Source: an uncultured Pseudomonadales bacterium (lineage in GTDB: Bacteria > Patescibacteriota > Microgenomatia > UBA1400 > PJMF01). Taken from it: 64,000 nt of DNA. The DNA lies in the NCBI GenBank assembly GCA_964495475.1, contig CAZBVY010000001.1:4239-68238 (forward strand), written 5' to 3'. A program made the position numbers and the translations under genes. The notes beneath the pieces are model-generated. The model searched no databases and was not told the DNA's origin. It saw nothing but the letters and a program-made list of their open reading frames with translations. Below, piece after piece: positions 1 to 46,954 of this stretch (positions are counted from its first letter, which is position 1; every line of letters begins with the position of its first letter).

Positions 1-1309
1 TCTTCTGTGTGGCGGAGTTTTGCCTTAAGATCGGTTAACTTGGTTTGGAGTTCATTCTTTTGTTTAAGAAACATCTCATCATCGATTAAATCCCGGTAGC
101 GCATCTTGGTTAGGTTATCCAACTCAGCTTGGGTAGTTAACAAGGTTTTGCTTTGCATCTCATTAATCTTAGTTCTGTCGGCAATTTCCCGATCATTATT
201 TTCGTTTAAGACTTCTAAAGCCCATTTTCTAAAATCAGGAATGATGGTAATACTGGCTAGTTCCTGCTCAATTTGTCTTTCTAGTTTATCTAGTGGCACC
301 ATCTTGCGTTGGCTGCAGTTAACGGTCTTTTTCTTCCTGGTGCAGTGGTAGTAGGTGTATTCTTTGATTTTGCCGGTTTTCTTAATCAGTTTTTTCTTGG
401 TTTCAGCCGTATAAAGGCAACCACACTCGCCACAGCGAATAAATCCAGTAAAGGCAAAGTCGTGAGTTTTACGTCTGGGTTTACCTTTTCTGCCAAGTAA
501 CATTTGGACTCGATCAAACTCATCTAAAGTAATCATTGGTTCATGTTTACCCTCATACTGTCTGCCTTTATGTTCCAGCACTCCGGCATAGAAAATATTA
601 GTAAAGATTCGGTAAATACCGCTTCTGGATAAAGGTTTGCCACCAAGTCTCTTGGTTTTTCTGGTTAAGTAGCCCCAATCCTCATTGGCAATTTTGAGAA
701 TTTGAGGAGGAGTATAAGCGCCAGTCAGCATTAATTCCCACATTTTGGTGATTAAGTTAAACCGCTCCGTATCCTTAACAATAGTATTTTCTACCTTCTC
801 GTTGAGATAACCTGCAGGAGCGAGATTGGGCAACCAGCCCTTTTGTTAAGCTTGGTTTCTAAGCCTCGTTTTACATTTTTACTTAAGTCCAGGATGTACT
901 GATTCGAGCTAGCAGCTTCCACGCTGAAAATGATGACATTATCTCCTGGCAAGTATTCTCGGTCATAGGTTTGTATTGACTTGAGCACATTTTGTTGGAG
1001 CATCCAACTCAATTTTCCACTATCAACTGGATTTCTGGAGAGACGGTTAATCTGCCAGCAAAGGATCCCATCTGCCTCACCGTTCTCAACAGTCGCCATC
1101 ATTTCTTCAAATACAACTCGATTGCCTGGTTTTTTGGCCGATTTGGCTTCGGTAAAGGTTTTGACAATCCGAAGATTTTGATCTTTTGCCAGTTCTTTAA
1201 GTTTAGTAACTTGGCTCTCAATTGATTGCACCTGCCGATCTTCACTATCTGAAGACTTACGAGCATAGAGCACATAGCGCAGACTTTTCTTATTTTTTGG
1301 TATGGTCAT
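1..1309 (-). pseudogene. large serine recombinase, interrupted: resolvase catalytic domain ORF 791-1309; recombinase + zinc-ribbon + coiled-coil domains continue 845->1 in a different frame; 3' end beyond window
   Basis: ORF 791-1309 has the N-terminal resolvase fold (YARKSS...QxxSIESQ). The reverse strand of 1-845 translates to GWLPNLAPAGY...RCGECGCLYTAE...YYHCTRKKKTVNCSQRK plus a coiled coil, typical of a large serine recombinase C-terminus. The two parts are in different frames with a TAA at 846-848, so a +/-1 shift lies near the CCC/TTTT run at 835-848. Confidence 0.7.
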
Positions 1310-3685: not shown

Positions 3686-5401
3686 CTATCTTCTTGAAAA
3701 GAAAAATTTATTATGATTTGGAGCAGTGACGAACCTAAAACTCAGATGACCCAAATGTACAAATCCATAAGTGGAGTTAATTTTTTCAACACTATTAAAA
3801 GTTACTCCGCTCAAAATTTGACCTATTTTGATATGAGCTAAAGTTTGAGCTTTTTGAGTTATATTATCAATTCCTTCTCTTAGTTCTGTTCTGAGGGCAT
3901 CAAGCTGATCGCCACATGGATATCCTTTAATTAGAATTGAACCATCTTCTAAAAGAATAATTCCCTCATAGATCATTTCAAGTGGAGAATATTGATTGAC
4001 AATCTGTTTTGCATTCGTAAATTGTGTTTCCGGCAATGGAATTACGTCTAACCCAACCTCACTATAGTGAGAGTAAGAAACTATTGTGGTATGAAGATCC
4101 TCAAGAGGTGGTAACCAATATTCCAGGTTTGGATTAGCTTCCTTAAGCTCTGAAATAAGTTGAGTCCTAAATTTACTAATTTCTTTTCTAAACCTAGCCG
4201 GAAAAGGGTATCCCAAAACTAATCCTGTAGGTCTGTAAAATGAAGGATGAGGGATCCATTCCGACGCTCTTTTTTGAAAAAAAGTTTCTTTTATGTGGTT
4301 AATTTTTTGAATACTTGTACCTACTTCGTCAACCCTTTGTTTAAGTGAGTCATAAACAGCAAACATTTTTCTAATAGCTGCGATATCTTCACTCCCAAAA
4401 TAATTTGCTTGCATAAAAGCAATTGTTGGCCCAATTCCTTCGATAGGAGTTGTGGGTTCTGCTGCTAGAATTTTTTTTACCCAGCTATTTGACGCATTGA
4501 AGGATTCGGGACTATTTTTCATAATTGTAGATAGAAATTGAGAAGCCTCAGGAAGGTAACAAGTAATTCCGTTTATTATATCCTCTTTTGAAACAGAGTG
4601 CCCGCTGACCAGATATTCTATAAAAGGAATTGTGGTGGGTTTTTCTACGATGCTCCTGATAACAGAAACAAAATCATCAATATACAGATAATCTCTAGTT
4701 TCTGCGGATTCACTTCTTGATTGATGTAAGAACGCTGATAAAGCCAGTCTGCCAATTGTTCTCCTGGTTGAACAAGTAGGTCCGTAACAACTTGATATTC
4801 TTAAAATTTTTGTTGATGGGTGCCTGGCTACAAGTGTTTCTCCAACTGCTTTAGATAGCTCATACACATTCGACTTAAGTGGCAGAGGATTTTTTTTAAG
4901 AAATTTTTGAATAATTTGTAGAGCTTTGTTCTCAAAAAAATTTTCTTCGAGTAAATTTTCTTTACTAGCATCAAAAAGGGACACAAGTTTTTCAATCCAT
5001 TCTCTTTGTTGTTTGTTTTTGATATTGTCTATCCTTTGGGTAGAAGCAAAAACAAATGTTAATTGCTTATTTTTACTCAGGTGAGTTAGTAAACCAGGAA
5101 AAAAAGAATTTAATAGGAATACGCTAGAAGCTGCTTCTGGACTGTAATTCAAACTTACCATCCCGGCCATATTTAGGATGATATCTGCGTTTTTAACAAT
5201 GTTCTTTAAAAAATCCGTATCAAAGTAGGTATCTACTTCTAGTAATTGCCTAGGTATATCACCGGATCTATAAAAAAATTTTCTTTTTGATCCTTTTCGC
5301 AACACAGATACTGGGGAAATGGATGAAAGATTAAGTGATAGAGCCATCCCTAAATCACCAGTAGAACCAAGAATATAAATTGACGAATTTTTGTTATTCA
5401 A
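3686..5401 (-). CDS. NAD-dependent epimerase/dehydratase domain fused to C-terminal 2H-phosphoesterase-like domain
   Basis: N-terminus has a Rossmann ILGSTGDLG motif, the YELSK catalytic dyad and a DYLYIDDFV motif. C-terminus has two H-x-T/S-x motifs (LHTTIV, GHLSF) characteristic of LigT/2H cyclic phosphodiesterases. Start overlaps the upstream ROK gene by 4 nt. Confidence 0.6.
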   Translation of the reverse strand: MNNKNSSIYILGSTGDLGMALSLNLSSISPVSVLRKGSKRKFFYRSGDIPRQLLEVDTYFDTDFLKNIVKNADIILNMAGMVSLNYSPEAASSVFLLNSFFPGLLTHLSKNKQLTFVFASTQRIDNIKNKQQREWIEKLVSLFDASKENLLEENFFENKALQIIQKFLKKNPLPLKSNVYELSKAVGETLVARHPSTKILRISSCYGPTCSTRRTIGRLALSAFLHQSRSESAETRDYLYIDDFVSVIRSIVEKPTTIPFIEYLVSGHSVSKEDIINGITCYLPEASQFLSTIMKNSPESFNASNSWVKKILAAEPTTPIEGIGPTIAFMQANYFGSEDIAAIRKMFAVYDSLKQRVDEVGTSIQKINHIKETFFQKRASEWIPHPSFYRPTGLVLGYPFPARFRKEISKFRTQLISELKEANPNLEYWLPPLEDLHTTIVSYSHYSEVGLDVIPLPETQFTNAKQIVNQYSPLEMIYEGIILLEDGSILIKGYPCGDQLDALRTELREGIDNITQKAQTLAHIKIGQILSGVTFNSVEKINSTYGFVHLGHLSFRFVTAPNHNKFFFSRR

Positions 5402-6414
5402 TTATTCCTTTCAGCAAGAAGTCCAATACCTATTAAACAATCATTGTCATCATTTATACCCAATGAAACCATGTTAGGAATTTCCCCCCTAGGCCTTTGA
5501 TAAAAATCATGTTTAGTGATACTTCTGCGTAATGAATCCAAATATTTTTGACCACAGTTGAGAGCAAATCCGCCAATAAAAACCCATTTGTCTACTCCAA
5601 TGGTCGCTGCTAGCTGAGAAATACATCCTGTGAGAATAAATGTTGTTTCGTCTAAGATTTCAGTTGTGAAGGGGTCATCCTGTTGGAGAGCTTCAATTAT
5701 ATGATAAGTGGTAATTTCTTCTGGATTTTTAACTAATTTCGATAGATAAGAGTTCTGGTAATTTGGATGGACACTAGCTTTTTTTTGTGCCAATCGTTGA
5801 ATTCCTCGTCCAGAACAAATTGCTCCCACATGCCCTTTTCCTCCGCAATCACACAACAAAGCATCTTCAGAAAAATCTACTCTAATATGTCCCATTTCCC
5901 CACCCAATCCTCTTCTATCTAACAAAACTTTACTACTTTTCACATCGTAAATTTTGCTACCAATTCCAGAACTAACAGTAATTGCCCCTAAAAAATCATG
6001 ATGTGCATATTCTTCCATTTGTGCATACCGTTCAATAGCAGCCGTTATATCGTTGGCTACTGTAATACTTAACGAAGGGCATTCTTCCGTTAGTTTTTCG
6101 AGAAGTGGGAAATTAAAGCCTCTTTCTCCCCATACTGTGCAAGCCTGGTGTACAATTCCATCTGCGGTCATCGGTGCAGGAAAAGAAATCCCAACTTGTG
6201 AAATTGAAGAATCTTTACTTAGATAAAAACGTATAACCTCAACCATTTTTTTGATGAGTTTATTTTGAAGCTCTTCGATGGTTAACTCTGGATATAAAAG
6301 AAAGCTGGGCGTTTTCTCTCTCTTCGGTTCGCTCACAATTCCTTCTGGACTTTTGAATAAACAAGAGCGAAAATGTGTGCCCCCAATATCAATAGCTATA
6401 ACTTCCTTTTTCAT
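5398..6414 (-). CDS. ROK-family sugar kinase
   Basis: IAIDIGGTHFR ATP-binding start and the CDCGGKGHVGAICSG zinc motif of ROK/glucokinase-like kinases. Confidence 0.75.
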   Translation of the reverse strand: MKKEVIAIDIGGTHFRSCLFKSPEGIVSEPKREKTPSFLLYPELTIEELQNKLIKKMVEVIRFYLSKDSSISQVGISFPAPMTADGIVHQACTVWGERGFNFPLLEKLTEECPSLSITVANDITAAIERYAQMEEYAHHDFLGAITVSSGIGSKIYDVKSSKVLLDRRGLGGEMGHIRVDFSEDALLCDCGGKGHVGAICSGRGIQRLAQKKASVHPNYQNSYLSKLVKNPEEITTYHIIEALQQDDPFTTEILDETTFILTGCISQLAATIGVDKWVFIGGFALNCGQKYLDSLRRSITKHDFYQRPRGEIPNMVSLGINDDNDCLIGIGLLAERNN

Positions 6415-7559
6415 ATAAATTTCTCCAGGCTCAGAAAATCTAATGCTTTCTTTATTTCGCTTTCAGAGCACTTATTGGTAAATAAGGCAGATCCTGTGCT
6501 GATAGGAAGAACTAAATTTAAATTTCCTGCACGGTGTTTTCTTATATCATCAAGAGAGTTAAATAAACTTTGATGTTCTATAAGAGGTTTATTAGAAAAT
6601 CCTATTGCTTTAGCAAGATTAATGATTCGATCAAAATCAGTTTCTTTTAATATTTTTCTTTGAAAAGCAATATGAGTTGAAATTAAGATGTCTAGTCCCA
6701 CAGCTTCTCCATGTAAGATAGAGTAATTATTTGAAGTCTCGATGTATGGACTAAAAGTATGTCCGAAATCCACAAGCCTTTCTAAAATATGTTCGTGCAA
6801 GTTGGGTTCCAGTTCTTCCATCATTAATTGAGCGGAAAGGTAATTAATTTGCTGAGTTTGTTCTCCAAAATTTTTCCGCAAATAATCCAAGTAACTTTCT
6901 TCAATTAATGAAAAAAGGAGATCGCTTCGAACTATAGCCATTTTAATCATTTCATACAAACCACATCTAATTTCTGTTAAAGTCAAGGTTGTTAAAAAGG
7001 ACTGATCTACGAATACAGAATGAGGAGCATAATAGTGTCCAAGCAGATTTTTGGATTCATCCAAATTTACTCCTACTTTTATACCAACTCCAGCATCTAT
7101 TAATCCAACAAGAGTAGTAGGAATACGAATGTAGGAAATTTTGCGTCTATAAAGGGCGGCTGCCAATCCAACAATATCCATCGTGATTCCACCACCTATT
7201 GCTATGAAAAAAGAATCTCTTTTTATTCCAAAATTTTGGGCAACTTTACAAATCTTAATAGCCGATGAGATGTCCTTTTGATTTTCGTTAGCATTATTAG
7301 TGATTATTTTGTAATCGATATTTTGACTGGAAAAAAATTTTGTTATCTCTGGACCGTACAATGATTCTACGTTGTGATCTATTATCACGAGGGCTTTTTT
7401 GTCTTGGCACAGTTGACTTAGTTGATTATTAGGTGAGCAATCGAAGACATCTTTCGTAAAATGAACTTTGTAGTCTATAGAAATGTTTCTTTTTAGGTGG
7501 ATGTGATTATTATGTGTTTTCAGCATTTTAGATTTTTCAGTAAATTGCCTCAAATACAA
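6411..7559 (-). CDS. 3-dehydroquinate-synthase-like sugar phosphate cyclase
   Basis: IAIGGGITMDIVGLAAA, PTTLVGLIDAGVGIKVGVN, DFGHTF and HGEAVGLD motifs of DHQS/DOIS/EEVS-type cyclases. Confidence 0.75.
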   Translation of the reverse strand: MYLRQFTEKSKMLKTHNNHIHLKRNISIDYKVHFTKDVFDCSPNNQLSQLCQDKKALVIIDHNVESLYGPEITKFFSSQNIDYKIITNNANENQKDISSAIKICKVAQNFGIKRDSFFIAIGGGITMDIVGLAAALYRRKISYIRIPTTLVGLIDAGVGIKVGVNLDESKNLLGHYYAPHSVFVDQSFLTTLTLTEIRCGLYEMIKMAIVRSDLLFSLIEESYLDYLRKNFGEQTQQINYLSAQLMMEELEPNLHEHILERLVDFGHTFSPYIETSNNYSILHGEAVGLDILISTHIAFQRKILKETDFDRIINLAKAIGFSNKPLIEHQSLFNSLDDIRKHRAGNLNLVLPISTGSALFTNKCSESEIKKALDFLSLEKFI

Positions 7560-7887
7560 GAATTTTTAAATTAGTAGATCCCATATTTTTTAGACCGTGA
7601 CTACTTCCACTATGAGTAATAACAGCATCTCCTGGACCAATTTCTTTTTCATGGCCATCAACTGTCATTAATCCTTTCCCTGAGATAATGTAGTAAATTT
7701 CTTCATTTCCTTCATGTTTGTGGTAACCAATAGTTGAATCAGGAAGAATTTCGGTTTCATGAAGAAACTGGATAGAACTTCTGAAATCCTCTTTTTTAAA
7801 GACCTCTCGGAAGATAATTGAACCTTCTCCATTATGGCAACGTTCTTCAATAACTTTACGAGCTTCTGAAGCCAAGTTGATATGCAT
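7537..7887 (-). CDS. cupin-domain protein
   Basis: Both cupin motifs are present (GYHKHEGNEEIYYIISGKG; GDAVITHSGSSHGLKN). First gene of the overlapping four-gene operon. Confidence 0.7.
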   Translation of the reverse strand: MHINLASEARKVIEERCHNGEGSIIFREVFKKEDFRSSIQFLHETEILPDSTIGYHKHEGNEEIYYIISGKGLMTVDGHEKEIGPGDAVITHSGSSHGLKNMGSTNLKILVFEAIY

Positions 7888-8004: not shown

Positions 8005-8556
8005 ATGAAAATCTTTTTTTTAGCTAGCAATGCTGCAGACAAAGATTTGCGGTTTGCCTATACAAAAATTGTCCATACTTTAGAACTCGAAGGAAATGAG
8101 GTTTTTTCTCAACAACCTATTCCTAAAACCGAGGAAATTGAAAGTATGCCTAAAGAAAAAAGTGAAATGAGGGCAAAACAATTCTTCAGAAAGATGTTGC
8201 AATGTGATTGTGTAGTTTTTGAAGGAACGCGTTCAACAACTGGAGGTGGCTATTATTTATGCATGGCTCTACAACATAGTTTACCAGTTCTTTATCTTAC
8301 CCAGAATAAATATAGAGGCCTATACCTTGCATCATCGAACAGATTGTTGAAAATAAGACGATATGATTTAACCAAGCAGGATAATTTAAAAAACACTATT
8401 CAGGACTTTTTAAAATTTGCTACTAAAAAGAAGCTTTCTAATAGATTTAATTTAATGATTAGTGACTCAATGGATGAATTTTTGAATGAGATGTCTCGAA
8501 TTGATGGCATTAGCAAGGCTGATATTATTCGGGATCTTATTTATGAAAAAATGTAA
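8005..8556 (+). CDS. nucleoside 2-deoxyribosyltransferase-like (NDT/LOG-fold) domain fused to C-terminal ribbon-helix-helix
   Basis: MKIFFLAS...VVFEGTRSTTGGGYYLCMALQHSLPVLYL resembles the NDT-like Rossmann core. The C-terminal DEFLNEMSRIDGISKADIIRDLI is CopG/RHH-like. Divergent from the cupin operon. Confidence 0.45.
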   Translation: MKIFFLASNAADKDLRFAYTKIVHTLELEGNEVFSQQPIPKTEEIESMPKEKSEMRAKQFFRKMLQCDCVVFEGTRSTTGGGYYLCMALQHSLPVLYLTQNKYRGLYLASSNRLLKIRRYDLTKQDNLKNTIQDFLKFATKKKLSNRFNLMISDSMDEFLNEMSRIDGISKADIIRDLIYEKM

Positions 8557-8586: not shown

Positions 8587-8928
8587 TCAAAACGGTAACA
8601 GTTCTGAAGAATCAACTTTCAAAGCTTTGGCAATTTTGTATAGTGTGCGGATAGTAGGGTTGCGTTCACCGCGCTCAATCATGCCGATATACGTCCTATC
8701 TATGGACATCTTGAATGCTAGTTCTTCCTGAGTAACCCCTTTGCTTTTCCTGGTTCTCTGCAGTTTAGCTCCAAACTTTTTGAGAATGTGTTGGTGTGAT
8801 ATTGGTTTACCCATGTCTTTAGGGTAGTGACTCTCAGTCACATTCAACACGGACTCCTTGTCATCATTTATGCTATATTTAGCCAGGTGAGAGAAATAAT
8901 TTGAATTTGACATTTTGGGACCACCCAA
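8587..8928 (-). CDS. XRE-family HTH transcriptional regulator
   Basis: Cro/C1-type HTH: GVTQEELAFKMSIDRTYIGMIERGERNPTIRTLYKIAKAL. GC-rich gene; the true start may be the internal Met. Confidence 0.75.
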   Translation of the reverse strand: MGGPKMSNSNYFSHLAKYSINDDKESVLNVTESHYPKDMGKPISHQHILKKFGAKLQRTRKSKGVTQEELAFKMSIDRTYIGMIERGERNPTIRTLYKIAKALKVDSSELLPF

Positions 8929-8961: not shown

Positions 8962-9852
8962 ATGAAAATCATAAAAGGTTTAATCATCACAGCTTTACTT
9001 CTGACAGTGGCTGTCTTCGGTCTTAATGTCGTACGCTCAAAATACCAGTCATTTCGGACGCAACAGTTTGAAGGTCAAAAGATCCGGGAAATCAAAGAGA
9101 TTACAGAAAAGCTCAGTACCGACCCCAAATATCGGGATCACACCGCTCAAGCCACCAAGGAGTTAAGAGAAAAGCTATGTTCTTTGACCGCGCGGCCAGT
9201 TGAAGAGCGAGAAAAATCAATAGCCGCCATTCGTGACTTCCTGGAAATGCCGACTGTTGAAGTGGAATATGAATGTAGTAACGCTTTTTATAGTCTGGAA
9301 GAAGACCAATTTATCCCAGCAAAGGGTGAAACCTATACTGTCGGCTTAACTTACTTCATTGTCGATCCCGAGACTAATAATGTCTTACGGGTAGAAGAAA
9401 CTCCCGGGACTTGGGGATATAAAATCGATGGCAGTCGTTGGTTTAGTGAAGGCAAAGAATATGATTACTCCGCCAATTATTCTCAGGAGGAAGTCGAACA
9501 AATTGTCAGAAGCTTTATTGCCAAACAATCCTCATCTATTGGCAACATTGATCTGAGCAGATTGACGCTGGAGACTGGTAAGAAGGATGGTGATAACGGT
9601 AGGGTAAATTATTTCTTCATTTGGAGAGGTGAAGCGCAAAAAGTCCAACATAATCCACCGCTTGAAACTTGTAGTGAGGACTTAAATAAGGACGTTGAGG
9701 GTTTGTACTATAACGGCAACGGTGTTCCTTGTATTAAGGTTTATGAGTCGACTGAACAACCAAGCTTAAGTATTGCCTTTACTAATGGTGGTCAGCTGAT
9801 TAATTTCTCCAATGAGTTGAATGGACCGGTGAGTAGAGCCACTACCAGATAA
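8962..9852 (+). CDS. secreted/membrane-anchored hypothetical protein
   Basis: N-terminal signal/TM segment, 296 aa, GC about 45-48% (foreign). Confidence 0.55.
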   Translation: MKIIKGLIITALLLTVAVFGLNVVRSKYQSFRTQQFEGQKIREIKEITEKLSTDPKYRDHTAQATKELREKLCSLTARPVEEREKSIAAIRDFLEMPTVEVEYECSNAFYSLEEDQFIPAKGETYTVGLTYFIVDPETNNVLRVEETPGTWGYKIDGSRWFSEGKEYDYSANYSQEEVEQIVRSFIAKQSSSIGNIDLSRLTLETGKKDGDNGRVNYFFIWRGEAQKVQHNPPLETCSEDLNKDVEGLYYNGNGVPCIKVYESTEQPSLSIAFTNGGQLINFSNELNGPVSRATTR

Positions 9853-10047
9853 TTTTATGAAAAAGCTACATCGCTTTATTGCTCTCAAGCTCTTGGTGTT
9901 TATCGAAATGCAGGTTAAGCTGTTAAAACGTTTGGTTTTCCGTTCTTCACAATGTCCCTAAGAAACGGTTTGACGGCCACATTAGGTATAACTTCTCCAA
10001 CCAGGCAGCAAACGCCCCACAAAAACGGCCACGGTGGCAAACCGTAT

Positions 10048-13000
10048 TCAGTTTTTGATAATGTCTATTAGTTTTTCCTTAACTGAATCGATATTAAGGG
10101 AAGTAATCTCACTAGCAGCAAGCGTAATTTGTGCCGCTTTCTTTATTCCTTCAACAGTCGAATCTTTACAAGCATCCAAAACATCTTTTGATTCTTGGTC
10201 ATGCCATGTCGCAAATAAATGCCCTGCCAAGTTTGTCCATCTTTTAATTAGGAGGTCCACAAGATAATCATCAAGTGTCCAGCAAAAAATAGAAAAATCC
10301 TTTAATGACGATGTTAGTAAAGCGCTAGCATACAATGAGTATTTCCTATCATCGTCTTGGGTTAATATGTGTATTGCCGCAACTGCTCTGAGTGCCACGT
10401 CTGCCGTTCCATCTTGAATAAGATGTCGAGCTTTTTCTGTGGTCATAGTAGGAGCTTCTTGGACAAAATCGACCCATTCTTTGTATTTATCTAAGCCAAG
10501 CTTCTTTCCTGATGCTTCCCATTTACTCCAGGGTACTTCCTCAAAAGTATGTGATGTTAAAAATGAAAGAAGGGTAAATGCCAATGTGTGAGCAATTGTA
10601 GCCCCATGCGTCTTCAGTGCTTCTTGAATGTCTTGGGAGCTTATTTTCCTCATTGCTATATGCCGATTTTCAATTCCGATACTTACTTGTGTTAGAGTAA
10701 AAAAGTAAATAATGTCTTCGACCAATTTATCTAAATTACCGCTCTTTAAAGAGCGAACAATTTCAACCTTTTTGGTTTCAGCTTGAAAAAGTATTGGCAA
10801 AGTGTCGAATATATTCATTAACTTGTTGAAAGCGTTATTTTTTACTTGAAGCTCAACCTCAACTTCCGCAAGGAAACTCAATAAAGTCTCTGGGGGTGTA
10901 ATGGGTAGTTCTCTAAGTTTCTCGCTGAAATCTGTCGGGCTATGTGAGCCAGCAACAGGTTCAACATAGTCTAAGCCTACACTTCGATATTCTGGGTTTA
11001 TATTTTTCTGGAAATAAATTAGTGTATTGGATGTCATTTTTAACAAGCCAAGCGACCTAAGATTGGTTTTTGGACTGGGTAGTTTGGGTAAGGTTTCTAT
11101 TACATGGACAAAAATATCAATGCATTTTTCGTATTTGCCGAGCTTCCATAAGGAAAAGCCGTAATCAGCTAAACATTGAGTTGCGTATAATTTTTCATTT
11201 TGTCTTTTGGCGAGTTCTGAGGCTTCAAGAAAATGAGTCGAAGCAGTTTTCCAGTCGTTTAAATTTGCAAATGCAACAGCAGCATCGCGATAGGCAAAAG
11301 CTGCCGTTAAGTAGTTCTTCTTTGCTAGCTTTGGCAGCACCTCTTTCCATCTTTTCAATGCAAGAGAAAAATCTTTATTAATGAAAGCCATTTTGGCGTG
11401 GTAATTAATTAATTCCGGCAGCTCTCCTAATTCTTTTTTTCCAGCAGAAATAGCTTGTTCTGCTCCTGCTTTGTCATTGGTGTACTCGTTCTTAATAATT
11501 GCAATTGCACGAACAGCTAGAGCCGAGACACTCAGAGCCTTCTTCTTAGCGAAAAAGACCTGTATTTTTTCTAGTGCAATAAGTGCTTCTTCCCAATCTG
11601 GCTTATCTTTATCTATCTGATCCAACCAAACATTATCAACAACCCTTTTTGAGAGCATTGAATCAGTATTGATAGCATCAATAAGTTTTTGGCTATCAGG
11701 GAATTTGTCGAGCGCTGACATTAACCCTTCAATATTTGATGAGTTGATTCGTTTAGTAATAGCTACTTCGGGAATTATTTCAGCCCACGAAGTTTTTGGG
11801 TCACCCCAAGGTTGCTTAAAGATAGAGTTGATTTCTGGATTCTTATCCAGAAAGTCATATGCCGCCAATATCCACTCAACACATTTCTCTATGGGGATAT
11901 TTAGTGATTCGTACCTGAATACACTTAGGAAAAACATGAATGGGAAGAATTTTGCCTCTTTCTGCTTTTGGAAAGGTCCTTTTGCAGTAAAGTTTTTGGC
12001 ATCGTTAAACCATGCATCTGCAACTGCTAATGCCGACTTCATGTCTTTAGTTTCTACAGCAATGGTAAATTGAATAAATCTAAACATTAAGTTGAGGATT
12101 TCGTCCTGACTAATAGCAGGCTTATTCGTCCCGATATGCACAACTGTTAGCCATTCAAGGTATGGATAAATTAAAGCCTTGTGTTTGTTGTCTATCGACT
12201 GGAAGGCAGCAAAAGCGAAGGATAAGATCCGACCAGAGCCACTAGCCAACCCATGAAGAAATATGTTTGATAAATCTCTCGGAACCAATGTTTTTGATAA
12301 ATATGACTCTCCAGCTAAAGCATGAAGATTTTTAATCTCTTGTTCAGAGAAATTCCCTTGGGAGGAGTTATCTAGTAAAGGGCTTAAACTAAAATATTCT
12401 TCTGTAATTTGCTCCACGTATGGTCCAACTAATTGGTTAAAAAATATTGCTGGGGTTTTAATTGATGTTGGATAGGCGGCTAGAGCAATTGCATTTTTTT
12501 GTTTAAAAGATCCCGAAAGAACACTCAGTCTTAGTAACAAGTCTCGTGCTTCTGGTGAAGGTAATTCTTGATCTAGATTACTTACCGTTTCTCGTTTGAC
12601 AGCGCTTAGCTCTTCAGTCTTAAAAATTATTTTTGACTTGTCCCATCCTTCTTCTTTTAATCTGCGAATGCGCGCGTGAACAAGTTGAGGATGGGACTTT
12701 GTAGTAAACTCTAGATCTTTAATCCATAGATTTAGTTCCGATTGAGGACAATCATTAAGTTGAAGTAGTTCCTTGATTTCTTCAGTGGTAAATACTGGAA
12801 TATGGAGTTCGTTATTAGTGTTTAATCCCAACCTTGAAGCCAAAGAAGAGGGTATCTTTTTTTGAGAGGTAACGATAATCTTTTTGCCATGGGATCTCAA
12901 ATAAAGAACAAACTGTTCAAAAGTATCGGCATAAATAGCGTAATCTTGGCCAAAATTAATATCATCCAAAATAATATTTTGGGGAGCGTGCGCGTCAGTA

Positions 13001-14085
13001 TTACAAAGCCCATTTATGATGGCCTTGATATATTCGCTTTTTATGCCTCGAAAACTAATCCGTTCCCAGTTATTTCGTTCGGCCTCAACTGCTTGTAAAG
13101 ACAGGATTGATTTTCCCATGCCACTAGAACCAGTTATTGCGAGGACGTCCAAAGTTTTTAGTCTTCCGAGAATTGTTTGTTTTAACGACTTTCTAGTAAC
13201 AAACAATTTTCTGTCTGGAATATGAGGAGCGGAAATCTTAGTATCAATCGTGTTTCCACCTGGGTTTGGAGGGATTAAATTACCTTGACTGAGAACAATA
13301 GCTGTTAATTGAGAAGCTGCATTTCTTAACAATTCCAACTCTCCTTTGGACACCGGTGTGGTGGTAAGAGCTTCAAACTCTCTAATGAAATCTGCTTTGC
13401 TCAAACTTCGTTCTTTAATTTCTTTTTTGCACACTGTTTTCAAAACAGTATCAAAAAGTAAAGGTGCTGTCTTTTTTGATTCATCTGCCTTTAGACTATG
13501 TTTATCTCCATGCACAATAAGTAAGTCTTCTATAGATTTTCGGAGAGCAGACAAGCTATCTCTTTCTGTTAACCAGCTAATTGGAAGTACTAAATTATCT
13601 AGTATTTCTTGATCGGTTGCAGTTTTTAGATATTCAACCAGATCAGTAGGGAAGCCATCAATCTGCTTCAAGAACTTTCTCAGTGGCTTTACTTGGTTGC
13701 TATTCTTGCAGTGCTCCCAATAGTCCAACCCCCTTTGACCACTAAATGGGTTGCCTTGTTCTTGCCCTCTTGCGGCAGTGGTGAAAAATCGAAATATTAC
13801 ATGCCTTTGGTCGTTTTTCTTTAATGTCCAATAGTCAATAATCGCTTTAATAACTTCTGCTGACCTTAATGTAATGTTTTTTGATAAATGTTTTACCTGA
13901 GTAGTTGTCGACGAGGAGGTGGACAGCAAATCAATGTCTTCTGCCCCTTCCAGGTATAAAATTTCGCCATCTTCTAGATTAATCCATGCATGCAAGCTTT
14001 CCCATGCTTGGTATACATACCCTTGAAAGATATCGGTGGCTTGTCTTTTGGCATCTGCCGCTAGGGGTTGCATTTCATCTGTCAT
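10048..14085 (-). CDS. antiviral-STAND-like protein: N-terminal restriction-endonuclease-like (Cap4/DUF4297-type) domain + P-loop STAND NTPase + C-terminal TPR array
   Basis: N-terminal GYVYQ...EDIDLL...QVKH nuclease-like motifs. Walker A AITGSSGMGKS, Walker B IILDD. Long C-terminal TPR-like repeats. 1345 aa. Confidence 0.7.
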   Translation of the reverse strand: MTDEMQPLAADAKRQATDIFQGYVYQAWESLHAWINLEDGEILYLEGAEDIDLLSTSSSTTTQVKHLSKNITLRSAEVIKAIIDYWTLKKNDQRHVIFRFFTTAARGQEQGNPFSGQRGLDYWEHCKNSNQVKPLRKFLKQIDGFPTDLVEYLKTATDQEILDNLVLPISWLTERDSLSALRKSIEDLLIVHGDKHSLKADESKKTAPLLFDTVLKTVCKKEIKERSLSKADFIREFEALTTTPVSKGELELLRNAASQLTAIVLSQGNLIPPNPGGNTIDTKISAPHIPDRKLFVTRKSLKQTILGRLKTLDVLAITGSSGMGKSILSLQAVEAERNNWERISFRGIKSEYIKAIINGLCNTDAHAPQNIILDDINFGQDYAIYADTFEQFVLYLRSHGKKIIVTSQKKIPSSLASRLGLNTNNELHIPVFTTEEIKELLQLNDCPQSELNLWIKDLEFTTKSHPQLVHARIRRLKEEGWDKSKIIFKTEELSAVKRETVSNLDQELPSPEARDLLLRLSVLSGSFKQKNAIALAAYPTSIKTPAIFFNQLVGPYVEQITEEYFSLSPLLDNSSQGNFSEQEIKNLHALAGESYLSKTLVPRDLSNIFLHGLASGSGRILSFAFAAFQSIDNKHKALIYPYLEWLTVVHIGTNKPAISQDEILNLMFRFIQFTIAVETKDMKSALAVADAWFNDAKNFTAKGPFQKQKEAKFFPFMFFLSVFRYESLNIPIEKCVEWILAAYDFLDKNPEINSIFKQPWGDPKTSWAEIIPEVAITKRINSSNIEGLMSALDKFPDSQKLIDAINTDSMLSKRVVDNVWLDQIDKDKPDWEEALIALEKIQVFFAKKKALSVSALAVRAIAIIKNEYTNDKAGAEQAISAGKKELGELPELINYHAKMAFINKDFSLALKRWKEVLPKLAKKNYLTAAFAYRDAAVAFANLNDWKTASTHFLEASELAKRQNEKLYATQCLADYGFSLWKLGKYEKCIDIFVHVIETLPKLPSPKTNLRSLGLLKMTSNTLIYFQKNINPEYRSVGLDYVEPVAGSHSPTDFSEKLRELPITPPETLLSFLAEVEVELQVKNNAFNKLMNIFDTLPILFQAETKKVEIVRSLKSGNLDKLVEDIIYFFTLTQVSIGIENRHIAMRKISSQDIQEALKTHGATIAHTLAFTLLSFLTSHTFEEVPWSKWEASGKKLGLDKYKEWVDFVQEAPTMTTEKARHLIQDGTADVALRAVAAIHILTQDDDRKYSLYASALLTSSLKDFSIFCWTLDDYLVDLLIKRWTNLAGHLFATWHDQESKDVLDACKDSTVEGIKKAAQITLAASEITSLNIDSVKEKLIDIIKN

Positions 14086-14095
14086 AAAATTCGTG

Positions 14096-14287
14096 TCAAG
14101 GTTTGGGGTTCAAGATCTTTTCTATCTCTTCTGGCTTATACCGTCTATCGCCGCGCTCATTTACTCGTATTGACTTGAGTTTCCCTGCCTTGTCCCACCG
14201 CCTCAAGGTTTCGACATGAACGTTCAAAACCTCAGCTGCTTGGCGGATAGTTAAAAGTTTTGGTAGAGTGGTGTTTTTCTTCGACAT
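14096..14287 (-). CDS. excisionase/AlpA-family HTH DNA-binding protein
   Basis: LLTIRQAAEVLNVHVETLRRWDKAGKL matches the Xis-type HTH_17 signature. Confidence 0.65.
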   Translation of the reverse strand: MSKKNTTLPKLLTIRQAAEVLNVHVETLRRWDKAGKLKSIRVNERGDRRYKPEEIEKILNPKP

Positions 14288-14340
14288 AACTCAACTTAAT
14301 TATACAATTTTTCGATGAAAAAGGTTATACTTAACCTGAC

Positions 14341-14643
14341 ATGAAATCAATTTTTACCATCATTGTATTTGTTGTTTTGGGTTACTTCCTCTACAGCAGG
14401 TTTATAAAATATCCATACAGATATGTGGGGTATTTTTACCCTAGTATTGATATTCTTAGTGAATGGGTAGAGTCCGAACCAATTGGATCAGTTGACGAGT
14501 GCCGTGAGTGGGCGGAAGAGATGGCTGATGAGTACGAGGTGGCTTATAGTGGCAACTACGACTATGAGTGCGGTAAAGACTGCTACAAAGGTGACCCATA
14601 TTATCAAGGGCTCAAATATACTTGCCACACCTCAGTGGATTAG
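14341..14643 (+). CDS. small membrane-anchored Cys/Tyr-rich hypothetical protein
   Basis: N-terminal TM helix; the C-terminal half is very GC-rich (foreign). Confidence 0.45.
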   Translation: MKSIFTIIVFVVLGYFLYSRFIKYPYRYVGYFYPSIDILSEWVESEPIGSVDECREWAEEMADEYEVAYSGNYDYECGKDCYKGDPYYQGLKYTCHTSVD

Positions 14644-15932: not shown

Positions 15933-16580
15933 ATGCTTGAAGACAATGAAAAAACAATAGAATCTAATTCTTTAAAAAAAGAAGCCCCTAAGGCTCTAGA
16001 AAAAGAAAACCTTAAAACAGGGAGCATCGTTATTGGCGATAAAAACCCAGAAGAATTGCTAAAAGCAATGGAAGACAAAGAAATTTATATTGATTATCGC
16101 GCAAAAGAGGTAATGGAAAATCCTGACTTTACATCTCACCTAAAGATTAAATTAAATATTTTTCAAACAATTTTCAAAAAAGTTTTTGAACCCAATGAAA
16201 ACCAACCAACTACTGAAACAGTACAGTTTGTAAAAATAAGAATCAGGGATTTAGGATTTTCAACTGAGCCAACTATCGAAGAAATTTTTGAGAAAGCTAG
16301 AGAGCTCGGCCTTGAACTTTGTCCAGCAGAAGTTGGTCCCCAATATAGATTGCAATATGATGATCAGCCGGCAAAAGAGTGGCTTTATGTAGGGATGAAA
16401 CCACTTGACACTTCTAACGGAGAGGGGATCTTTTTGCTCAAAAACAATAATATTGATGGTTCAAAATTGGATTTTTGTAGAACAACAAGAGATGGTACTC
16501 TAGGATTAGATGACAGAATAAATGAAGAAATAATGTTTCGTTTTTCATCAAAGAAAAAAGTCAGTCAACTAAAAATATAG
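15933..16580 (+). CDS. hypothetical protein
   Basis: 215-aa ORF with a TATAAT-like element upstream. Confidence 0.5.
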   Translation: MLEDNEKTIESNSLKKEAPKALEKENLKTGSIVIGDKNPEELLKAMEDKEIYIDYRAKEVMENPDFTSHLKIKLNIFQTIFKKVFEPNENQPTTETVQFVKIRIRDLGFSTEPTIEEIFEKARELGLELCPAEVGPQYRLQYDDQPAKEWLYVGMKPLDTSNGEGIFLLKNNNIDGSKLDFCRTTRDGTLGLDDRINEEIMFRFSSKKKVSQLKI

Positions 16581-33562: not shown

Positions 33563-33650
33563 GGAGGCATCGCATAGTGGCCAATTGCACAGGTTTGCTA
33601 AACCTGACCCCTTTTGGGGTTCCTGGGTTCAAATCCCAGTGCCTCCGCCA
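33563..33650 (+). tRNA. tRNA-Ser (anticodon GCT), CCA encoded
   Basis: Acceptor GGAGGCA/TGCCTCC, anticodon stem CAGGT/ACCTG with loop TTGCTAA, long variable arm CCCC-TTTT-GGGG, T-loop GTTCAAATC, G73. Confidence 0.9.
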
Positions 33651-38671: not shown

Positions 38672-38756
38672 GGAGGGATCGCATAGTGGCCTAGTGCAGC
38701 GGTTTACTAAACCGCCATAGCGCAAGCTATCCAGGGTTCGAATCCCTGTCCCTCCG
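38672..38756 (+). tRNA. type-II (Ser-like) tRNA with apparent anticodon ACT, no encoded CCA
   Basis: Acceptor GGAGGGA/TCCCTCC, anticodon stem GCGGT/ACCGC with loop TTACTAA, variable arm ATAGC-GCAA-GCTAT, T-arm CAGGG-TTCGAAT-CCCTG, G73. Confidence 0.75.
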
Positions 38757-38777
38757 CTCTACATTTTTAAAGAAAAA

Positions 38778-42472: not shown

Positions 42473-43585
42473 TTAAACAATTTTTTCCCAACTAAATTCT
42501 GATTTACCAAAATGACCATAGGTCGAAGTTTTGGCGAAAATTGGCTGACGCAAATCAAGTTGTTTAATGATTTTTTGTACAGACATATCCAATAAACCCA
42601 AAGCATATTTTTTTATCTCTTCATCGCTAATCTTACCTGTTCCAAAAGTTTCTACATCAAAAGAGACTGGCGTAGCTTGACCAATGACGTAAGCTGCTCT
42701 TACTTCACAACGATCTGCATATCCTTTTGCAACAATATTTTTAGCTAAAAAACGACAAGCATAAGCAGCGCTACGATCAACTTTACTTGGATCTTTACCA
42801 GAGAAGCAACCGCCACCATGACGCCCCATACCTCCATAGGTATCGATAATGATTTTACGCCCCGTTAAGCCCGTGTCAGAAGCTGGACCACCTATTTCCC
42901 ACGCTCCAGTACCATTAATAATTAATTTAATATCATTTTGATTTAAAATTTGATTGGGCAAATATTTTTTAACTGCCGGCACGATTACTTTGTCCCAAAG
43001 ATCATTTTCTAACTGTTCTTTTTTAATTTGTGGATCATAGGGTACCGCCATAATGATAGTCGATACTTTATTTGGTTTACCCTCAATGTAATCAATTACT
43101 ACTTGAGCTTTACCATCTGGTCGCAAATAAGAAATAATTTTGTCTTCACGAACTTGATCTAAATTACGCATCAATTGATGAGCCAGCATAATTGGCATCG
43201 GCATCAATTCTGGAGTTTCATTACAAGCATAACCAAACATAATTCCCTGATCTCCAGCGCCACCATCGTCCACGCCAAGAGCAATGTCTCTAGATTGTTG
43301 ATGAATGTAGATTTCTAAATCTGATTTGTCAGAAAAACCCCAATTGGGATTTGTATAACCAAGTTTTTTAATGGTTTGACGAGCAATATTTTCGTAATCA
43401 ATTTTGCCAGAACAAGTCACTTCTCCTGCTAAAATAATTTTATTAGTTGTTACTAAAGTTTCTACAGCCACACGACTTTGAGGATCGATTTTTAAACAAG
43501 CATCTACAATGCTGTCTGAAATTTGATCACAAATTTTGTCAGGATGACCAGAGGCCACTGATTCTGAAGTAAATTGTTCCAACAT
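42473..43585 (-). CDS. metK: S-adenosylmethionine synthetase
   Basis: GHPDKICDQISD, GAGDQG and GGGCFSGKDPSKVDRSAAY motifs. Confidence 0.9.
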   Translation of the reverse strand: MLEQFTSESVASGHPDKICDQISDSIVDACLKIDPQSRVAVETLVTTNKIILAGEVTCSGKIDYENIARQTIKKLGYTNPNWGFSDKSDLEIYIHQQSRDIALGVDDGGAGDQGIMFGYACNETPELMPMPIMLAHQLMRNLDQVREDKIISYLRPDGKAQVVIDYIEGKPNKVSTIIMAVPYDPQIKKEQLENDLWDKVIVPAVKKYLPNQILNQNDIKLIINGTGAWEIGGPASDTGLTGRKIIIDTYGGMGRHGGGCFSGKDPSKVDRSAAYACRFLAKNIVAKGYADRCEVRAAYVIGQATPVSFDVETFGTGKISDEEIKKYALGLLDMSVQKIIKQLDLRQPIFAKTSTYGHFGKSEFSWEKIV

Positions 43586-43630: not shown

Positions 43631-43785
43631 GAAAATAAAAAACACTCTGCAAAGAGTGTTTGAATTTCTCAAACGAGCGAATCTCCCTCTTGCGAGCTAG
43701 ATTTAGCACCGTGTTCTATACAAAATCGGTTGCTGAATGGGTCAAAAGGCTAGTTCCCTCACCATTTCTCTTGATTTGATTTGTT
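43631..43785 (-). promoter_or_regulatory. SAM-I (S-box) riboswitch with terminator in the metK leader
   Basis: The minus strand reads UCAAGAGA..UGGUGAGGGA..GCC..GACCC..AGCAACC...GGUGCUAAAUCUAGC...GGGAGAU, then an AACACUCUUUGCAGAGUGUU hairpin and a U-run. Confidence 0.7.
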
Positions 43786-46800: not shown

Positions 46801-46885
46801 GGAGGTGTCGCATAGTGGTCAATTGCACACGCTTGGAAAGCGTGAGCCGCAAGGCTTCGCAGGTTCGATTCCTGTCACCTCCGCC
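46801..46885 (+). tRNA. tRNA-Ser (anticodon GGA), CCA encoded
   Basis: Acceptor GGAGGTG/CACCTCC, anticodon stem CACGC/GCGTG with loop TTGGAAA, long variable arm, T-loop GGTTCGATTCC. Confidence 0.9.
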
Positions 46886-46954
46886 ACATATTAAACATTA
46901 ATATTATTTAATTAGTTATACTCTTCTTATAACAACTCCAGTAAAATAAAATAA

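Follow-up and report, generated by a model that had tools for sequence, protein, structure and literature searches.

Antiviral STAND (Avs) proteins have been catalogued in a census that sorted 589 clades and 684 sensor structural clusters, covers 198 defense STAND clades and at least 90 Avs families, including Cap4-STAND-TPR proteins such as Avs7, and names Avs8 and Avs10-24 (Lee et al. 2026, PMC13581612). The Cap4-STAND-TPR proteins Avs3 and Avs7 tetramerize upon binding phage proteins and cut double-stranded DNA (dsDNA) (PMC13581612). DUF4297 has been established by experiment as a dsDNA nuclease that needs both a PD-(D/E)xK motif and dimerization (PMC11291478). Here, we analyzed a 64,000-nucleotide (nt) stretch of DNA (hereafter, the window; positions 4,239 to 68,238 of contig CAZBVY010000001.1, assembly GCA_964495475.1) that carries a gene for a 1345-amino-acid (aa) protein of comparable architecture. 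We assign a probability of roughly 0.8 to the reading that this protein is a single-protein antiviral STAND receptor (i.e., Avs-type or bacterial NLR-like), encoded on DNA that a Patescibacteria genome (Microgenomatia, Woesebacteria-like) acquired horizontally. A gene for a small helix-turn-helix (HTH) protein lies upstream on the same strand, separated from the STAND open reading frame (ORF) by 10 nt. The features of the locus are as follows:

10048 to 14085, reverse strand: Avs-like STAND gene (single ORF with ATG start, 1345 aa)
13276 to 14085, reverse strand: nuclease domain of the Cap4/DUF4297-type PD-(D/E)xK class, aa 1-270 (profile hidden Markov models [HMMs], Foldseek, conserved residues)
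12376 to 13200, reverse strand: STAND NTPase core with nucleotide-binding, helical, and winged-helix domains, aa ~296-570 (AlphaFold2, Foldseek, conserved residues)
10051 to 12375, reverse strand: all-alpha repeat (TPR-like) C-terminal domain, the presumed sensor, aa ~571-1345 (AlphaFold2, TPR profiles)
11095 to 11298, reverse strand: TPR-profile match, aa 930-997 (Pfam TPR_12, 0.0023, sub-threshold)
14096 to 14287, reverse strand: gene for a 63-aa HTH_17/MerR-type (excisionase-family) DNA-binding protein (Pfam, NCBIfam)

The N-terminal domain is a Cap4/DUF4297-type nuclease by profile, fold, and conserved residues

The first-pass annotation of this stretch, made from the letters alone, had proposed a tripartite protein with an N-terminal nuclease, a central STAND NTPase, and C-terminal repeats, and this architecture was borne out by HMMs, AlphaFold2 models, Foldseek comparison, and residue conservation. 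All of the motifs that it had quoted are present in the translation, i.e., GYVYQ (G22-Q26), EDIDLL (E49-L54), and QVKH (Q63-H66) in the N-terminal domain, as well as GSSGMGKS (G319-S326) and IILDD (I371-D375) in the NTPase. Because the motif residues are invariant or at least 90% conserved in 105 homologues, these motifs are not chance occurrences.

Running PADLOC, as that annotation had proposed, returned a match to the DUF4297 model (residues 12-108, E = 2e-7) and none to any Avs model, and the NCBIfam family DUF4297_antiphage matched residues 14-79 (2e-6). The latter is a domain-only match far under the full-length equivalog cutoff (300 bits), which was missed because only the N-terminal ~70-100 of the 400 model positions match. 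Using a profile of the N-terminal domain only, we retrieved three solved DUF4297 proteins from the PDB (6e-7 to 3e-5), and in the profile alignment the RxA..GYxYQ, E-G-A-E-D-x-D, and Q-x-K motifs coincide residue by residue. An AlphaFold2 model of residues 1-285, built from a 105-sequence alignment, reached a mean predicted local distance difference test (pLDDT) score of 92, and its top Foldseek matches in the PDB were Cap4-type defense nucleases throughout: DUF4297 of HerA-DUF4297 (9c1m, 6e-8, the best match), HamA of Hachiman (8zue, 6e-7), LmuA of Lamassu (9nxx/9hr5, 1e-6), Cap4 of CBASS (6wam/6vm6, 2e-5), and the Cap4 domain of Avs3 (8dgc, 4e-5). A nuclease fold of the N-terminus had been named beforehand as the check on the proposal, and it was found by Foldseek (6e-8 to 4e-5), by model confidence (pLDDT 92), and by the profile motif alignment. 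More specifically, E46, E49, D50, and Q63 are invariant in the 105 full-length homologues and D52, V64, and K65 are conserved in at least 90%, so that E46, E49, D50, D52, Q63, and K65 are candidate active-site residues. These results support the assignment of the N-terminal domain to the Cap4/DUF4297-type PD-(D/E)xK nucleases.

A STAND NTPase core is followed by a predicted helical-repeat sensor

In the AlphaFold2 model of residues 286-1345 (pLDDT 92.3), a nucleotide-binding domain with five strands in alternating beta-alpha order is followed by a helical domain, a winged helix, and then ~770 all-helix residues. In Foldseek, this model matched the MalT-like STAND protein PH0952 (1e-7), MalT (2e-5), Avs4 (3e-5), CED-4 (7e-5), the plant NLR Roq1 (1e-4), and Avs5 (6e-4), and also SAMD9 and NLRP9. 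Characteristic STAND-core features include R298 ahead of the P-loop, the Walker A (G319-S326) and Walker B (I371-D375) motifs, and H465/P466 within the family-consensus motif GHPQLVHA; R298, G324, K325, and H465 are invariant in the 105 homologues, and D374, D375, and P466 are conserved in at least 90%. The Pfam families nSTAND3 and nSTAND1 matched the window protein below threshold in the region from the P-loop to Walker B, and precomputed matches to PF20720 were present in ~10 of 120 homologues. We take PF20720 and PF20703 to be the nSTAND3 and nSTAND1 clades in the nomenclature of Kaur et al. 2021.

A TPR sensor of ~700 aa had been proposed for the C-terminal part. The predicted structure is indeed a helical repeat throughout, but TPR profiles match only part of the ~770 aa. 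Searching the PDB with the single sequence gave chance TPR matches only, and the family profile was required to retrieve consensus TPR proteins (1.7e-13), together with a weak match to Apaf-1. The C-terminal domain is conserved over its full length across phyla, W1283 being invariant and W820, R933, W945, and D974 conserved in at least 90% of the 105 homologues. Taken together, the models support a STAND NTPase core at aa ~296-570 and a helical-repeat sensor with a TPR-like stretch at aa ~571-1345.

The protein belongs to a widespread family of fixed architecture

One exact copy of the protein and ten relatives with identities of 53-83% are present in public metagenomes, and the 1345-aa ORF is therefore real and conserved. 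A word-indexed search recovered 135 relatives, almost all of ~1340 aa and aligning end to end at 23-29% identity. At E<=1e-30, an exhaustive HMMER search with residues 286-1345 recovered 366 clusters (50% identity), a number that grew to 838 when the cutoff was relaxed to 1e-10 and to 1315 at 1e-3. For nearly all of the best 150 representatives, the HMMER match starts at target residue ~285-300, indicating that the Cap4 domain is fixed rather than swappable; effector swapping inside the family was accordingly rejected, as N-terminal length is constant in nearly all of these representatives. Among species-representative genomes, the family is present in Candidatus Daviesbacteria (53% identity, the closest there), Acidobacteriota, many Poribacteria, Latescibacterota, Verrucomicrobiota, Nitrospirota, and Alpha-, Beta-, Gamma-, and Deltaproteobacteria. 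Plasmid-borne members occur on rhizobial, Burkholderia, and other plasmids, and members in NCBI include WP_296993040.1 (Thalassospira) and MFZ3123426.1; homologues are also present in Ralstonia sp. A12 and Burkholderia semiarida.

Two further observations concern the architecture of relatives. The same subtype of Cap4-like N-terminal domain (34-36% identity, ~245 aa) sits on other C-terminal parts in three loci (L069, 9776-14746; L076, 9905-13285; L073, 292-2748), where its fusion partners are different STAND cores (NACHT, nSTAND5-like) or other C-termini; the Cap4 effector module moves between STAND clades. In addition, six representatives of ~1035-1047 aa (P0142, P0198, P0213, P0231, P0208, and P0238) start at query position 38-39, the Met in the Walker A motif GxGMGKS, which suggests miscalled starts, or genes split between Cap4 and NTPase in one subclade.

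Homologues lie among defense genes and on integrative elements

We examined the genomic contexts of ~90 family loci (designated L001 onward), 11 of which were annotated with Pfam and 86 of which were used for neighbor clustering. Known defense genes were present within ~7 kb in 6 of the 11 annotated contexts, a semiquantitative count without formal control and from loci that are phylogenetically non-independent; the reported background for neighboring defense genes is ~1.5% within 5 kb (PMC13581612). In L004, the gene separates hsdS from hsdM in a Type I restriction-modification operon; in L092, it overlaps a Type I hsdS by 4 nt, with TIR_2 and ThsB_TIR genes next; and in L005, it has a CAP12/PycTIR gene on one side and a Type III restriction-modification system on the other, with Shedu SduA_C nearby. 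Likewise, Type ISP restriction-modification, DNA methyltransferase, and HNH genes adjoin it in L001, it follows a Gabija/OLD/AriA-like ATPase in L003, and KAP NTPase and SLFN-AlbA genes are nearby in L091. According to all-versus-all clustering of neighboring ORFs in the 86 loci, the genes that recur near the STAND gene encode a PIN protein (14 loci), a methyltransferase (13) and a restriction enzyme (12) of Type III systems, PycTIR-like PDC-S35 (6), and HsdM (4), with representatives checked against Pfam and PADLOC. In the CPR clade (L002, L003, and L089), the gene is on or at the edge of an integrative element that also carries an XRE repressor gene, PrimPol or AAA_25, and a large recombinase of the serine or tyrosine type, the elements in L002 and L089 ending in large serine recombinases.

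As a separate observation, the PIN-domain (VapC-like) gene of L019 (14287-14703) overlaps the STAND stop codon by 4 nt, and its homologues recur beside the STAND gene in 13 other Poribacteria/Latescibacterota loci. This overlap suggests that, in the Poribacteria/Latescibacterota lineages, the STAND gene is co-transcribed with a gene for a second nuclease or toxin.

The HTH gene is a companion of close relatives only

The 63-aa HTH protein passed the NCBIfam TIGR01764 cutoff (35.1 bits versus 28.8) and matched Pfam HTH_17 (41.8 bits versus 27; 1e-10) and MerR_1 (42.2 versus 21.6; 9e-11). It had been described as an AlpA/Xis HTH protein; TIGR01764 is the excisionase-family DNA-binding domain, the AlpA model gave no match, and the protein type is HTH_17/MerR. 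The PADLOC mad1 model also matched (1e-13), and a PADLOC scan of four neighboring ORFs (8005-8556, 8587-8928, 8962-9852, and 1374-1955) for other MADS genes detected no mad match.

An HTH gene accompanies the STAND gene in 3 of ~90 loci, namely, the window, L002, and L086, the HTH copies being ~85% identical and the STAND proteins 77% (L002) and 82% (L086). Searching with phmmer within +/-10 kb, we found no HTH homologue in 84 of the 86 loci, including L001 (68% identical) and L006 (53%), and the gene was absent from all 80 species-representative loci and from the Pfam-annotated contigs of L087 and L089, which are candidate phyla radiation (CPR) relatives at 53-54% identity. As it is missing from relatives at <=68% STAND identity, we rejected the HTH gene as a conserved partner of the family. 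Its presence in only the window, L002, and L086 therefore indicates a recent lineage-specific companion.

Upstream of the HTH gene, a 53-bp divergent intergenic region contains one further element:

14299 to 14306, reverse strand: TGTATAAT, extended -10-like, a possible operon promoter noticed by eye, 12 nt upstream of the HTH start codon

Based on the 10-nt gap and TGTATAAT, the HTH and STAND genes are probably co-transcribed. A consensus promoter scan revealed no excess of promoter-like sites over shuffled sequences, so for TGTATAAT we only infer promoter function. The HTH protein most likely regulates transcription of the two-gene operon or serves the island as an excision or regulatory factor; it is not a core component.

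The STAND gene probably lies on an acquired island in a Patescibacteria genome

The window SufB protein shares 85% identity with a protein from Candidatus Woesebacteria and 65-69% with proteins of other Patescibacteria, and these identities place the host in the CPR, class Microgenomatia, confirming the CPR assignment made from the letters. That annotation had also considered a defense gene in such a host remarkable. CPR genomes are reported to carry few defense systems each but at high density, and Microgenomatia to be one of the classes with the greatest diversity (PMC12259885); because of this density the presence of such a gene is not especially surprising in itself. The first ~14 kb of the window have a G+C content of 0.34-0.42, versus ~0.32 elsewhere, and contain a DnaD/HTH_36-like gene in addition to a recombinase gene; from the G+C shift, the recombinase, and the DnaD/HTH_36-like gene, we conclude that the STAND gene is probably part of an acquired island. 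The other features of this region are as follows:

420 to 1309, reverse strand: serine recombinase with resolvase domain (Pfam Resolvase, 3e-19), in two frames by tblastn with a break near 840
8587 to 8928, reverse strand: XRE-family HTH protein, 113 aa (Pfam HTH_3, 8e-18; PADLOC "control protein", 2e-17)
8962 to 9852, forward strand: 296-aa protein whose N-terminus has a hydrophobic segment; its gene converges on the STAND gene (no Pfam or PADLOC match)
10030 to 10046, no strand assigned: terminator-like hairpin with a T-run on both strands, right after the STAND stop codon, between the convergent genes

The split of the serine recombinase stems from a frameshift, pseudogenization, or an assembly error. 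XRE homologues are near the STAND gene in L086 (75% identity), L002 (59%), L089, L006/L087, and L001, i.e., they recur in the CPR clade. The 296-aa protein has a 67% identical homologue in the equivalent position of L086 and is kept with the STAND gene there only. Consequently, the window and L086 (STAND 82% identical) have in common a four-gene order in which the HTH_17 and STAND genes are followed by the convergent 296-aa gene and then by the XRE gene in the direction of the STAND gene. Terminator-like sites are just as numerous in the region as expected by chance, so the hairpin at 10030 to 10046 is weak.

Neither Pfam nor PADLOC matched the 183-aa ORF at 8005-8556 (forward strand), and Pfam gave no match for the flanking ORFs of 100 aa (14341-14643) and 215 aa (15933-16580). 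Within the G+C-richer island, a cluster at 3686-7887 (reverse strand) contains genes for an epimerase/NAD-binding-like protein (3686-5401), a ROK kinase (5398-6414), a 3-dehydroquinate-synthase-like enzyme (6411-7559), and a 116-aa protein that is cupin-like by eye (7537-7887); this cluster may be sugar- or cyclitol-modifying cargo. Rfam identified only three tRNAs and a SAM riboswitch in the window, and none at the STAND locus. One of these, at 38672-38757 (forward strand), was called by ARAGORN as tRNA-Ser with anticodon ACT (A at position 34) and is confirmed as a tRNA by Rfam, as are tRNA-Ser(GCT) at 33563-33650 and tRNA-Ser(GGA) at 46801-46886; a serine tRNA with A34 is unusual in bacteria. 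The SAM (S-box) riboswitch at 43676-43780 (reverse strand; 51.7 bits, above the gathering score) is upstream of a 370-aa ORF (42473-43585).

Proposed mechanism and alternative explanations

By analogy with Avs3, Avs4, and Avs7, from which the proposed trigger, oligomeric state, and abortive outcome are taken, the resting protein would be ADP-bound, with its Cap4-type nuclease inactive and held against the NTPase and sensor. The ~770-aa helical-repeat C-terminus would bind a protein of an infecting phage or other mobile element, and binding would open the NTPase, leading to ATP uptake and oligomerization, most likely into a tetramer. Oligomerization would unite the N-terminal PD-(D/E)xK domains into an active dsDNA nuclease, which would degrade phage and host DNA and thereby cause abortive infection.

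This reading is carried by three domains whose residues for catalysis and nucleotide binding are conserved, by an architecture that is fixed, and by the location in defense islands or on mobile elements. Several points weigh against it. The Avs models of PADLOC-DB v2.0.0 (Avs1-5) miss both the window protein and the distant members P0016, P0054, and P0034; the Pfam nSTAND3 match (PF20720; 16.5 bits, E = 0.007) stays below the gathering score of 27.2; and residues T406-Q408 are TSQ, not TxR, where we presume the STAND sensor-1 arginine should be. The effector domain is fixed in this family, whereas the classical Avs1-4 families swap effectors. As to context, the Type III and PIN neighbor counts are not independent because many of the loci come from related Poribacteria genomes, the contexts of L086, L087, and L090 are without a neighboring defense gene, and no phage-encoded relative was found among 50,697 phage records.

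Among the alternatives, an obligate two-gene system has some appeal, but we consider it rather improbable. In such a system, the HTH protein would act as an infection-licensing repressor or DNA-bound co-sensor, as do CapH/CapP in CBASS or BrxR in BREX, a notion favored by the 10-nt gap on the same strand, the retention of the pair in L002 and L086 (HTH ~85%, STAND 77-82% identity), the likeness of the HTH protein to mad1, the small HTH protein of MADS (1e-13), and the possible single promoter upstream of the HTH gene. Since the HTH gene is absent within +/-10 kb in 84 of 86 loci and from L087 and L089, i.e., from most family loci, it cannot be required for family function; moreover, the HTH_17 gene of L003 pairs with a tyrosine integrase in Xis-Int style, which points to a function in excision or in the element. 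The STAND protein may instead be a weapon or addiction module of an integrative element, directed at competing plasmids and mobile elements or killing cells that lose the island. We regard this as improbable, at about one chance in ten. Close relatives at the edges of XRE/PrimPol or AAA_25/recombinase elements (L002, L003, and L089), the G+C-richer island with its resolvase and DnaD/HTH_36-like gene around the window copy, and the plasmid-borne members are all compatible with it, but mobile elements ordinarily carry defense cargo, so this context fits both explanations. Moreover, many members are chromosomal, in restriction-modification operons without mobile-element hallmarks, and the architecture fits Avs proteins that sense phage proteins.

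We consider it very unlikely that the protein is a housekeeping STAND/TPR signaling ATPase outside immunity, such as a MalT-, AfsR-, or NPHP3-like regulator. The top Foldseek matches of the NTPase-sensor part do include MalT and PH0952, and some homologues bear generic JGI names ("TPR repeat protein", "DnaA/DnaC ATPase"), but the protein has no DNA-binding or other regulatory output domain, its N-terminal nuclease is conserved with an intact active site, and its patchy distribution across phyla, at plasmid, island, and restriction-modification-operon sites, is unlike vertical inheritance. The grouping with defense-type STANDs that the first-pass annotation had proposed is thus sustained by the lack of a DNA-binding output domain and by homologues in restriction-modification operons, defense islands, and integrative elements.

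With the Avs-type reading, a function can be assigned with confidence to a 4-kb "hypothetical" gene, itself no negligible part of a CPR genome of roughly 1 Mb. The reading also defines a coherent family of hundreds of clusters (50% identity) in many phyla that PADLOC v2, Pfam, and NCBIfam do not call Avs. Should the trigger be identified, one more phage-protein/receptor pair would be added to the Avs catalogue, which could report on little-known Patescibacteria phages. This kind of protein is already well established, and the picture of STAND immunity is unchanged.

Comparison with known Avs and STAND systems

The protein had also been suggested to represent an unclassified Avs clade. This stands insofar as PADLOC v2.0.0, Pfam, and NCBIfam yielded no Avs match, but it overstated the novelty, given the at least 90 Avs families already catalogued (PMC13581612). 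The family is probably within the 198 defense clades of Lee et al. 2026, because that census used Cap4-based BLAST seeds and NCBI nr, which contains family members. More tentatively, we propose an unnamed Avs family with a fixed ~1340-aa Cap4-STAND-sensor architecture that extends from Patescibacteria to Proteobacteria, whose sensor may recognize a protein of a phage or mobile element outside the Avs1-24 set, and whose Microgenomatia subclade gained a dedicated HTH_17 regulator, a control layer undescribed for Avs; this proposal is doubtful as a whole, and if true it would offer a tractable entry point to CPR-phage immunity.

As the Avs models of PADLOC v2 give no match, an assignment of the protein to Avs1-5 finds no support; PADLOC matches of the window protein and of P0016, P0054, and P0034 were to the DUF4297 or LmuA (N-domain) models only, and a family-profile search of the PDB found no Avs3, Avs4, or Avs5 sequence among the best 60 matches listed. 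The Avs7 sensor, a bilobed TPR domain that senses the major capsid protein, is homologous to the Dsr1 sensor, whereas the window protein matched only DUF4297 in PADLOC, which we assume to include Dsr1 models. The nSTAND3 and nSTAND1 families (PF20720 and PF20703) give weak matches, all under the gathering threshold for the window protein, and are distant relatives at best.

The window protein resembles HerA-DUF4297, CBASS Cap4, Lamassu LmuA, and Hachiman HamA in nuclease fold and in the RxA..GYxYQ, E-G-A-E-D-x-D, and Q-x-K motifs, and these proteins are defense effectors switched on by oligomerization. In contrast, the known systems couple the nuclease to SAVED, HerA, SMC-like, or helicase partners, whereas here a single polypeptide joins it to a STAND NTPase and sensor. 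Avs4 (EcAvs4, 8dgf), PH0952, MalT, CED-4, Roq1, and Avs5 resemble the remainder of the protein in having a STAND core of nucleotide-binding, helical, and winged-helix domains followed by helical repeats. Avs4 differs in its Mrr-type nuclease and its portal-binding sensor, and because the query-normalized TM-scores are low (0.15-0.22), only the core fold is common to the window protein and these solved STANDs.

In the broad sense of Avs (Gao 2022; Lee 2026), the protein has a STAND core, a fused defense effector, a repeat sensor of at least 400 aa, and defense-gene neighbors. Avs7 (SeAvs7) and Avs3 (SeAvs3, 8dgc) share with it the order of a Cap4-type nuclease, a STAND NTPase, and a large TPR-like sensor within a single gene, Avs3 being longer (2028 aa versus 1345 aa), and the SeAvs7 motif residues K292, D358, and H545, as quoted in PMC13581612, being spaced differently from K325, D375, and H465 here.

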